A stretch of 6,732 nt of DNA from a virus (lineage: Duplodnaviria > Heunggongvirae > Uroviricota > Caudoviricetes). Location: the IMG/VR virus record IMGVR_UViG_2671180656_000021; one strand, written 5' to 3'. The notes under the pieces were generated by a model. It saw nothing but the letters and a program-made list of their open reading frames with translations. It did no database searches and had not been told where the DNA came from. A program made the translations under genes and the position numbers. Positions 1,051 to 1,215 of this stretch are shown piece by piece. The first letter of the stretch is position 1; the number at the start of each line of letters is the position of its first letter.

Positions 1051-1215
1051 TCACTCGATATCTGGAGATACAGACGTATCAACATGATTGAGCGGCATAC
1101 GATACTGCTTCCATGCCGCCAGTAACGATGTCTGCTCATCCGTCGCAATATCTAAATCTGCAGCATCCTGAAGTGGTGCGATATACTCACTGATTACAAG
1201 TACCAGACCGATAGA
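1051..1215 (-). pseudogene. Tail fiber assembly protein (Tfa) C-terminal remnant, about 49 codons with no start codon
   Basis: Manual minus-strand translation of 1200..1054 gives [49 protein letters not shown], then a TGA stop at 1051..1053. This closely parallels the C-terminus of lambda Tfa as I remember it (...[51 protein letters not shown]). The frame is closed by a stop at 1216..1218 and no Tfa N-terminal domain precedes it, so it is a fragment rather than a gene. Confidence 0.6.

Follow-up and report, generated by a model that had tools for sequence, protein, structure and literature searches.

Exchangeable effector loci (EELs) of lambdoid prophages are known from Tobe et al. 2006, as far as that work is summarised in PMC8112680. 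A segment derived from ykgJ/ecpE has been linked to attB-in-PP_2, which is associated with EELs, nleC-carrying ones included, and integration there has been put forward as a route by which effectors build up (Nakamura et al. 2021, PMC8112680). Transfer of the SopE cassette between phage families has been described in Salmonella by Mirold et al. 2001, according to the part of that work summarised in PMC7380047.

The locus analysed here is a stretch of 6,732 nucleotides, hereafter the window, which is 100% identical to E. coli O157:H7 chromosomes and of which at least 80% is found in 320 complete genomes. Its genes, in the order J, lom, stf, orf90, nleB2, nleC and nleH1, all lie on the minus strand, and a 5' fragment of ykgJ (ykgJ') lies on the plus strand (Table 1). 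Beyond nleH1 the genome continues with an IS fragment, nleD and then ybhB-bioA, the bio-side chromosome. The T3SS effector cluster is situated downstream of J-lom-stf at the right end of the prophage and varies in content between related prophages. The window is the right-end EEL of prophage CP-933K/Sp3, a name that follows PMC7142665 (Table 2) and PMC8065619. This prophage is very well studied, mosaic effector loci are established, and the tfa remnant discussed below is already known as an annotated pseudogene. Literature searches returned nothing specific on tfa remnants in EELs.

Outside the effector cluster, GC-rich hairpins with T-runs lie on both sides of lom (5410-5445 and 6083-6112). 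They probably cause the weak chance matches to the Rfam families Trp_leader and AaHKsRNA82, and they fit the view of lom as a moron that, as in lambda, is terminated autonomously.

Table 1. Features of the window, listed from J to nleH1-1.
Feature	Position	Strand	Basis
J	6130..	-	Gene call
lom	5460-6059	-	Gene call
stf, side tail fibre gene (lambda-Stf-like N-terminus, collagen repeats, Phage_fiber_C)	4084..5406	-	Pfam PF08400, PF01391, PF06820
orf90, small gene with tail-fibre C-terminal domain, usual partner of collagen-type stf	3810..4082	-	Pfam Phage_fiber_C, E=5.5e-25; second Phage_fiber_C after that of stf itself
nleB2, effector glycosyltransferase gene	2762..3742	-	Pfam SseK_NleB, E=3.3e-181
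nleC, effector protease gene	1709..2698	-	Pfam Peptidase_M85, E=3.9e-115
ykgJ 5' fragment, convergent with nleC: codons 1-38 from 1485, preceded by ~70 nt of upstream sequence	1413..1599	+	K-12 alignment; PGAP pseudogene
Junction between nleH-side module (1..~1412) and nleB2-nleC-ykgJ' module (~1409..)	1409..1412		Homology ends from both sides
AT-rich spacer (22-29% GC) travelling with the stub	1216..1408	-	67-76% identity to sequence directly after espM2 stop in 2B8-type phages
tfa 3' pseudogene remnant, lambda Tfa residues ~133-194 plus original stop codon	1030..1215	-	Pfam Caudo_TAP; tblastn; PGAP
In-frame TGA nonsense codon for conserved Trp (TGG) of ...DIEWP...	1051..1053	-	Lambda alignment continues through TGA, GAGTGGCC vs GAGTGACC
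Original tfa stop TAG after ...PVIPAL	1030..1032	-	Lambda alignment; ...WP(I/V)IPAL* tail also in 2B8 tfa'(a) copy and protein P0002
orf90 3'-end-like remnant with its downstream region, between stub and nleH (~140 nt)	888..1025	-	77-nt repeat; aligns with orf90-nleH prophages and with 2B8 sequence downstream of tfa'(a)
Conserved element TGTTGCCATGTTAGGGGGATGTTTGTTA	921-948; second copy 3852-3879, upstream of nleB2	-	Motif search: 2 found vs 0 expected in window
nleH1-1, effector kinase gene, annotated start 882	1..882	-	Pfam OspG_kinase; PGAP annotation

The tfa remnant between nleC and nleH1

Translated from the minus strand, positions 1051..1215 matched the Pfam profile Caudo_TAP (PF02413) with 59.2 bits (E=5.9e-16, cut-off 22.1), over profile positions 80-125 of 131 only. 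A tblastn search of the window with lambda Tfa (194 aa) mapped the bounds of the homology, returning one significant match, residues 136-193 against 1206..1033 (67% identity, E=2e-21); residues 1-135 had no counterpart anywhere in the window, the next-best match having E=1.4. Over 51 aa the stub is 72.5% identical to the lambda Tfa C-terminus. The match continues through the in-frame TGA at 1051-1053, and the stub, ending ...DIE*PVIPAL* at the original TAG, is 21 nt longer than first stated. An earlier note, made from the sequence alone, had described a tfa 3' remnant resembling the Tfa C-terminus, with no N-terminal domain, a premature PDIE-stop and a distance of about 170 bp to nleH1. This description is right; at the premature stop TGG has become TGA, and the distance to the annotated nleH1-1 start is 168 nt.

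The stub is clearly homologous to the C-terminal ~60 residues of lambda Tfa (orf-194) and of the PF02413 chaperones, but it differs from them in lacking the N-terminal two-thirds and a start codon, in carrying an internal nonsense codon and in having no cognate stf beside it. A functional Tfa has full length (~190 aa), an intact ORF with a start and a cognate stf next to it, and none of these was found here: the ORF list of the window holds no ATG, GTG or TTG ORF of at least 30 aa in this frame, and orf90, nleB2, nleC and ykgJ' separate the stub from stf. It is a pseudogene and not a functional member of the Tfa family. RefSeq/PGAP likewise lists it among the pseudogenes ('tail fiber assembly protein, incomplete, missing N-terminus'), while some older NCBI records place a 53-aa CDS with a non-standard ATC start on it (P0001). 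As a 3' fragment in a degraded prophage it resembles the annotated tfa relics of K-12 cryptic prophages (tfaX, tfaS and similar genes). The nearest intact tfa genes are ~72% identical to it in protein and ~75% in DNA, and stub copies are 85-100% identical among themselves. A word-indexed search of 5.8 billion proteins for a full-length close parent retrieved three short fragments only, a result that does not bear on whether intact relatives exist.

Boundaries of the nleH block and the ykgJ-derived segment

Module boundaries were mapped with BLAST of window positions 1-4100 against related loci and with pairwise alignments. Positions 1..~1405-1412 are 93% identical to phage 2B8 and to the IMG/VR records L006, L007 and L008, where espM2, a gene for a WxxxE effector, comes first and the shared tract starts directly behind its stop codon. 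This tract contains nleH, a 147-nt spacer, the stub and an AT-rich spacer of ~190 nt. In another locus (L009), the stub and its upstream spacer (1043-1407) also follow espM2, and a different 291-aa ORF comes next. When homologues of the spacer (1216-1412) were sought in other contexts, none was found outside the window type and the espM2 type. From the opposite side, nleC and ykgJ' (1463-2715) are 90% identical to the end of an O111 prophage near yodB (L087), and similarity to the region upstream of ykgJ in K-12, in L088 and especially in L177 starts at ~1409-1413. L177 carries the same variant of the ykgJ-upstream sequence, which ends at the same position there and has a different left neighbour.

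Since the nleH-block homology ends at 1405-1412 and the nleC-block homology at ~1409-1413, the two modules meet in a sharp joint at ~1409-1412, within the ykgJ-upstream homology, ~75 nt upstream of the ykgJ' start codon and ~200 bp upstream of the stub 5' end. The boundary between nleB2-nleC and nleH1 is thus placed in the ykgJ-derived segment, outside tfa. The earlier note's second suggestion, that the nleH1 side comes from a different phage joined by recombination within tfa, is roughly right as to origin and wrong as to the breakpoint, which has to be shifted. Illegitimate or short-homology recombination between two prophage right ends is a candidate for how the joint arose. The joint coincides, within ~3 nt, with the position of the espM2 stop codon in 2B8-type phages, and a specific site could be involved.

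The first preference of that note was another mechanism, in which a tfa that once followed this stf had its 5' part interrupted or replaced by the nleB2-nleC cassette. Gene order alone (stf, nleB2, nleC and then a tfa 3' stub) would suggest as much, and a 77-nt direct repeat (906-982 vs 3837-3913, 70% identity) brackets nleB2, nleC, ykgJ' and the stub. This orf90-like repeat was all that emerged when repeats or target-site duplications were sought around 1216..3809, and the block it encloses is larger than that segment, with the stub inside it. Four observations contradict the insertion. The identical 5' truncation point, the same TGA and a homologous spacer of ~190 bp are found next to espM2 in 2B8 and in IMG/VR prophages, so the truncation is older than the contact with nleC. 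The nleC-block homology stops ~200 bp short of the stub. A collagen-type stf is followed by orf90, without tfa, in every stf-orf90 locus examined. Finally, ykgJ' lies between nleC and the stub, which is the wrong side: because the canonical order is stf, tfa, ykgJ (L089 and K-12), a tfa belonging to this stf would precede ykgJ' rather than follow it. We regard the insertion as close to untenable.

The stretch 1443-1599 is 85% identical to K-12 ykgJ codons 1-38 and the 43 nt upstream of them, and similarity continues more weakly as far as ~1413. An ETEC prophage (L089) has stf, an intact tfa and an intact, convergent ykgJ, followed by the chromosome/att, and K-12 holds a fossil of the same order, with a tfa 3' remnant directly downstream of ykgJ. 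We compared 55 IMG/VR loci with ykgJ 5' sequence; where tail-fibre or effector genes are present, ykgJ or ykgJ' ends the right arm, preceded by stf-orf90, stf-orf90-nleC or ...nleH-nleF, and a 2B8-type int comes next in five loci. Among the IMG/VR right ends examined, ykgJ' is internal only in the window type. In CP-933K/Sp3, the nleH block directly follows a run of genes (stf, orf90, nleB2, nleC, ykgJ') that elsewhere makes up an entire prophage right end.

The marks of attB-in-PP_2 are a ykgJ/ecpE-derived segment beside an EEL and a 96-bp att sequence. The window has the former (1443-1599): right behind nleC come the ykgJ 5' fragment and a portion of what lies upstream of it, and the module joint falls in that upstream portion. 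It differs in having no integrated phage, int gene or duplicated att, and would be at most a putative deletion derivative. One specific mechanism for the joint would be compatible with reading the stub as a relic. A second lambdoid phage would have integrated at attB-in-PP_2 at the right end of the nleB2-nleC prophage, and a later deletion, reaching from the int side to the spacer before an already truncated tfa, would have left the tfa stub, nleH1 and nleD. The association of attB-in-PP_2 with nleC-carrying EELs (Nakamura et al. 2021, PMC8112680) speaks for such a history, as do the place of the joint ~75 nt upstream of the ykgJ' start, inside the ykgJ-upstream homology, the variant in L177 that ends at the same position beside another left neighbour, and the otherwise constant terminal position of ykgJ' next to att/int. 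The ykgJ-upstream homology in the window stops ~75 nt before the ykgJ' start, and other prophages keep at least 125 nt; the homology shared with K-12 and prophages is also shorter than in, for example, L087, where it extends to position 3310 of the K-12 locus L090. Against this history, downstream of nleD or nleF no further copy of ykgJ or att was found in L001, L003 and L129, the left neighbour of the spacer in 2B8-type phages is espM2 and not an int-proximal arm, and the right ends of the phages that Nakamura et al. 2021 (PMC8112680) found in attB-in-PP_2 bear nleG instead of nleH. We consider a phage integrated within the prophage an unlikely source of the joint, although far from negligible.

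Two further observations concern this region. The 73 nt just downstream of the nleC stop (1636-1708) are 100% identical to a stretch of EPEC E2348/69 that lies under an annotated nleH gene. The K-12 'IS009' locus between yagU and ykgJ (L090, NC_000913.3, 2612-2811, corresponding to genome positions 303,611-303,810) is a tfa fossil convergent with ykgJ and collinear with the tfa-ykgJ right end of L089. This suggests that the chromosomal ykgJ locus is an ancient prophage right end. If so, the direction of origin proposed for attB-in-PP_2 would be reversed, the ykgJ-type att being derived from phage rather than from the chromosome.

Decay of the stub

The closest copies of the stub, in phage 2B8 (L002), the IMG/VR records L006-L008 and L009, have the same 5' end, a stop followed by SIGLV..., and the same TGA. 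Additional, independent nonsense codons are present in 2B8 and L008 (ELA*) and in L009 (DE*). A more distant lineage (L084/L085) is without the TGA; there, instead, the Trp codon has lost 1 nt, and a further deletion removes 9 nt. Synonymous and nonsynonymous substitutions in the stub number 0 and 5 against 2B8, and 3 and 17 against L009, as compared with 19 and 12 in the adjacent nleH. Given the lack of a start codon, nonsense codons and indels that differ between lineages, and substitutions that are nearly all nonsynonymous, the stub evolves neutrally and is decaying. The tfa gene was truncated once, in an ancestor of the block, and the stub has decayed neutrally since.

The stub might instead have been kept for a function, be it as a small protein, as a small RNA resembling IS009, or within the nleH1 promoter or 5' regulatory region. 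The Rfam model IS009 (RF02111) matched it at 1070-1246 on the minus strand with 76.4 bits (E=1.8e-16), in an alignment that covers the stub and its upstream 30 nt. This falls below the family's gathering score (117), whereas the coding sequence of intact lambda tfa (L083, 4317-4515) reaches 218 bits with this model and the yagU-ykgJ intergenic region of K-12 reaches 202 bits. As it scores so highly on a coding sequence, the match reflects tfa homology and not RNA structure; the stub falls short of the family threshold, and the family itself is a tfa 3' coding region. The 53-aa CDS call at NCBI would point to a small protein, and it is set against the lineage-specific nonsense codons and indels and the predominance of nonsynonymous changes. 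Conservation was also considered, the stub of the window being 97% identical to that of 2B8 and the upstream spacer just 67%; recent co-transfer with nleH, which is 95% identical, explains the high identity of the stub equally well. A stub precedes nleH in 15 of 35 loci, but 19 of the 35 have none. A scan of 850-1750 predicted no sigma-70-like promoter or terminator on the gene strand at 892-1420, from nleH to ykgJ'. Retention for a function is very improbable, and the stub, as far as its sequence tells, presumably does nothing today.

Tail-gene remnants between effector cassettes

Prophages with an intact stf-tfa followed by nleH, which would have allowed the breakpoints to be located, did not turn up: none of 35 IMG/VR NleH loci has an intact tfa upstream, so no progenitor phage with tfa and then nleH was found in this set. 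The arrangement is stf-orf90-nleH in 19 loci, and a tfa stub is present in 15. The loci other than the 19 comprise ten with nleB2, nleC (codons 1-98 only), a shorter stub (Tfa residues ~146/153-186) and nleH, three of the 2B8 type, two of the window type and one that is partial. The ten (L098, L100, L101, L107, L114, L115, L117, L118, L120 and L123) share their arrangement with L084 (7265-7320) and L085 (4156-4211): nleC codon 98 is joined to tfa codon ~146, at the equivalents of window positions 2404 and 1172, which amounts to a deletion of window 1173-2403. In L084, nleC ...GGCATTCATA is followed by TTCAGGATGCTG... of tfa codon ~146. This variant is commoner in the IMG/VR sample than the O157 arrangement, and it may have arisen by loss of 1.2 kb from a window-like ancestor in which the TGA mutation had not yet occurred. 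A possible tfa 5' piece inside nleC, a 16/17 match of the lambda tfa 5' end (ATGGCATTCAGAATGAG) to nleC 2399-2415 that coincides with the L084/L085 breakpoint, was dismissed as chance on reading the sequences.

Between the stub and nleH, the remnant resembling the orf90 3' end contains the first member of the 77-nt repeat. The conserved element within it, with the consensus TGTTG(C/T)CATGT...GG.GATGTTTGTTA, is found upstream of both nleH and nleB2. A third copy is present in 2B8 (L002, ~4800-4850), downstream of the other tfa stub of that phage and upstream of espM2. Garcia-Angulo et al. 2012 reportedly described an nle regulatory inverted repeat (NRIR), to which the element may be related. 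The orf90 gene of the window ends ...CVVMSGGCLLGKQRWQNCWRFCG, where the usual end is ...CVVRPLQILRADGTWENIGGMK; relative to other prophages, its 3' end (3810-3913) has undergone a ~110-nt deletion that fused it to the second copy of the element. PGAP annotates the corresponding orf90 of strain PV15-279 as frameshifted or partial. It seems that nleH first stood after orf90, that a tfa stop was then joined to the orf90 remnant, and that the truncation of tfa came last.

Across the sampled loci we counted 65 full tfa genes, 133 3' fragments without the N-terminus and no 5' fragments, in a sample that is redundant and was partly selected on similarity to the stub or the Tfa C-terminus, so that the 3'/5' asymmetry is biased. 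This polarity fits events that replaced the left side and kept the right. Downstream of an intact tfa, 71 lambda-like loci have a methyltransferase gene in reverse orientation and then an 89-aa ORF with Tfa residues 132-194. In the type case (L010, 8235-9229), the methyltransferase-like gene encodes 222 aa, and the 89-aa ORF has an ATG start and the Tfa C-terminus as its last 63 residues. This makes a second common type of cargo insertion with tfa 3' sequence on either side.

The earlier note had also proposed conserved tail-gene segments as recombination linkers that shuffle effector cassettes. Some homology breakpoints do fall at or in the stub, if anecdotally: L009 and 2B8 diverge at its 3' end, L084 and L085 are joined inside it, and the tract of high identity between the window and 2B8 starts at its 5' end (97% in the stub, 67% in the spacer). 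Others lie away from its edges, at 1409-1412 and, in comparison with the stf-orf90-nleH phages, at 952. Identity between the two stubs within 2B8 is only ~75%, a level too low for paralogous stubs to recombine efficiently by homology. The data are better suited to scars of past joins than to sites that promote joins.

Taken with its origin, the following reading is the one we consider probable: the stub is a dead relic of the last ~60 codons of a lambda-type tfa, carried in a mobile block of ~1.4 kb. The block, in the order AT-rich spacer, tfa stub, orf90-3'-like remnant and nleH, would circulate among the EELs at the right ends of EHEC/EPEC lambdoid prophages. An effector would first have stood directly downstream of the tail-fibre module (tfa or orf90). 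Later recombination between prophages would have replaced everything to the left and kept the right-hand cargo, and 3' stubs of the former last tail gene would have been left between effector cassettes as scars.

A broader generalisation is possible but tentative, and we hold it to be the less likely case. The tfa and orf90 3' stubs, together with an element of ~30-45 nt upstream of nleH, nleB2 and espM2, would be systematic cassette boundaries, and EELs would grow by polar replacement of their left side with the resident right-end cargo kept, maybe aided by a ykgJ-derived att. Its corollary would be that the universal E. coli ykgJ locus with 'IS009' is a fossil prophage right end and that the ykgJ-type att of prophages is of phage origin. 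If the polarity of the stubs (3' kept, 5' lost) holds genome-wide, they could be cheap markers for the stacking order of effector cassettes in EHEC and EPEC. Taken by itself, the locus is the usual mosaic debris of an EEL and matters little.

The SopE cassette, as far as the summary of Mirold et al. 2001 in PMC7380047 allows the comparison, is alike in that an effector gene with constant flanks moves by recombination between otherwise different prophages. The present case differs in its E. coli host, in its LEE-T3SS effectors and in a constant flank that includes a tfa stub and an orf90-like remnant. From the EELs there is no difference in kind: the effector genes nleB2, nleC and nleH1 form a cluster that follows the tail fibre genes at a prophage right end, and its content is mosaic from phage to phage. 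What is added here is a map that shows where the modules end and which tail-gene stubs lie between the cassettes.
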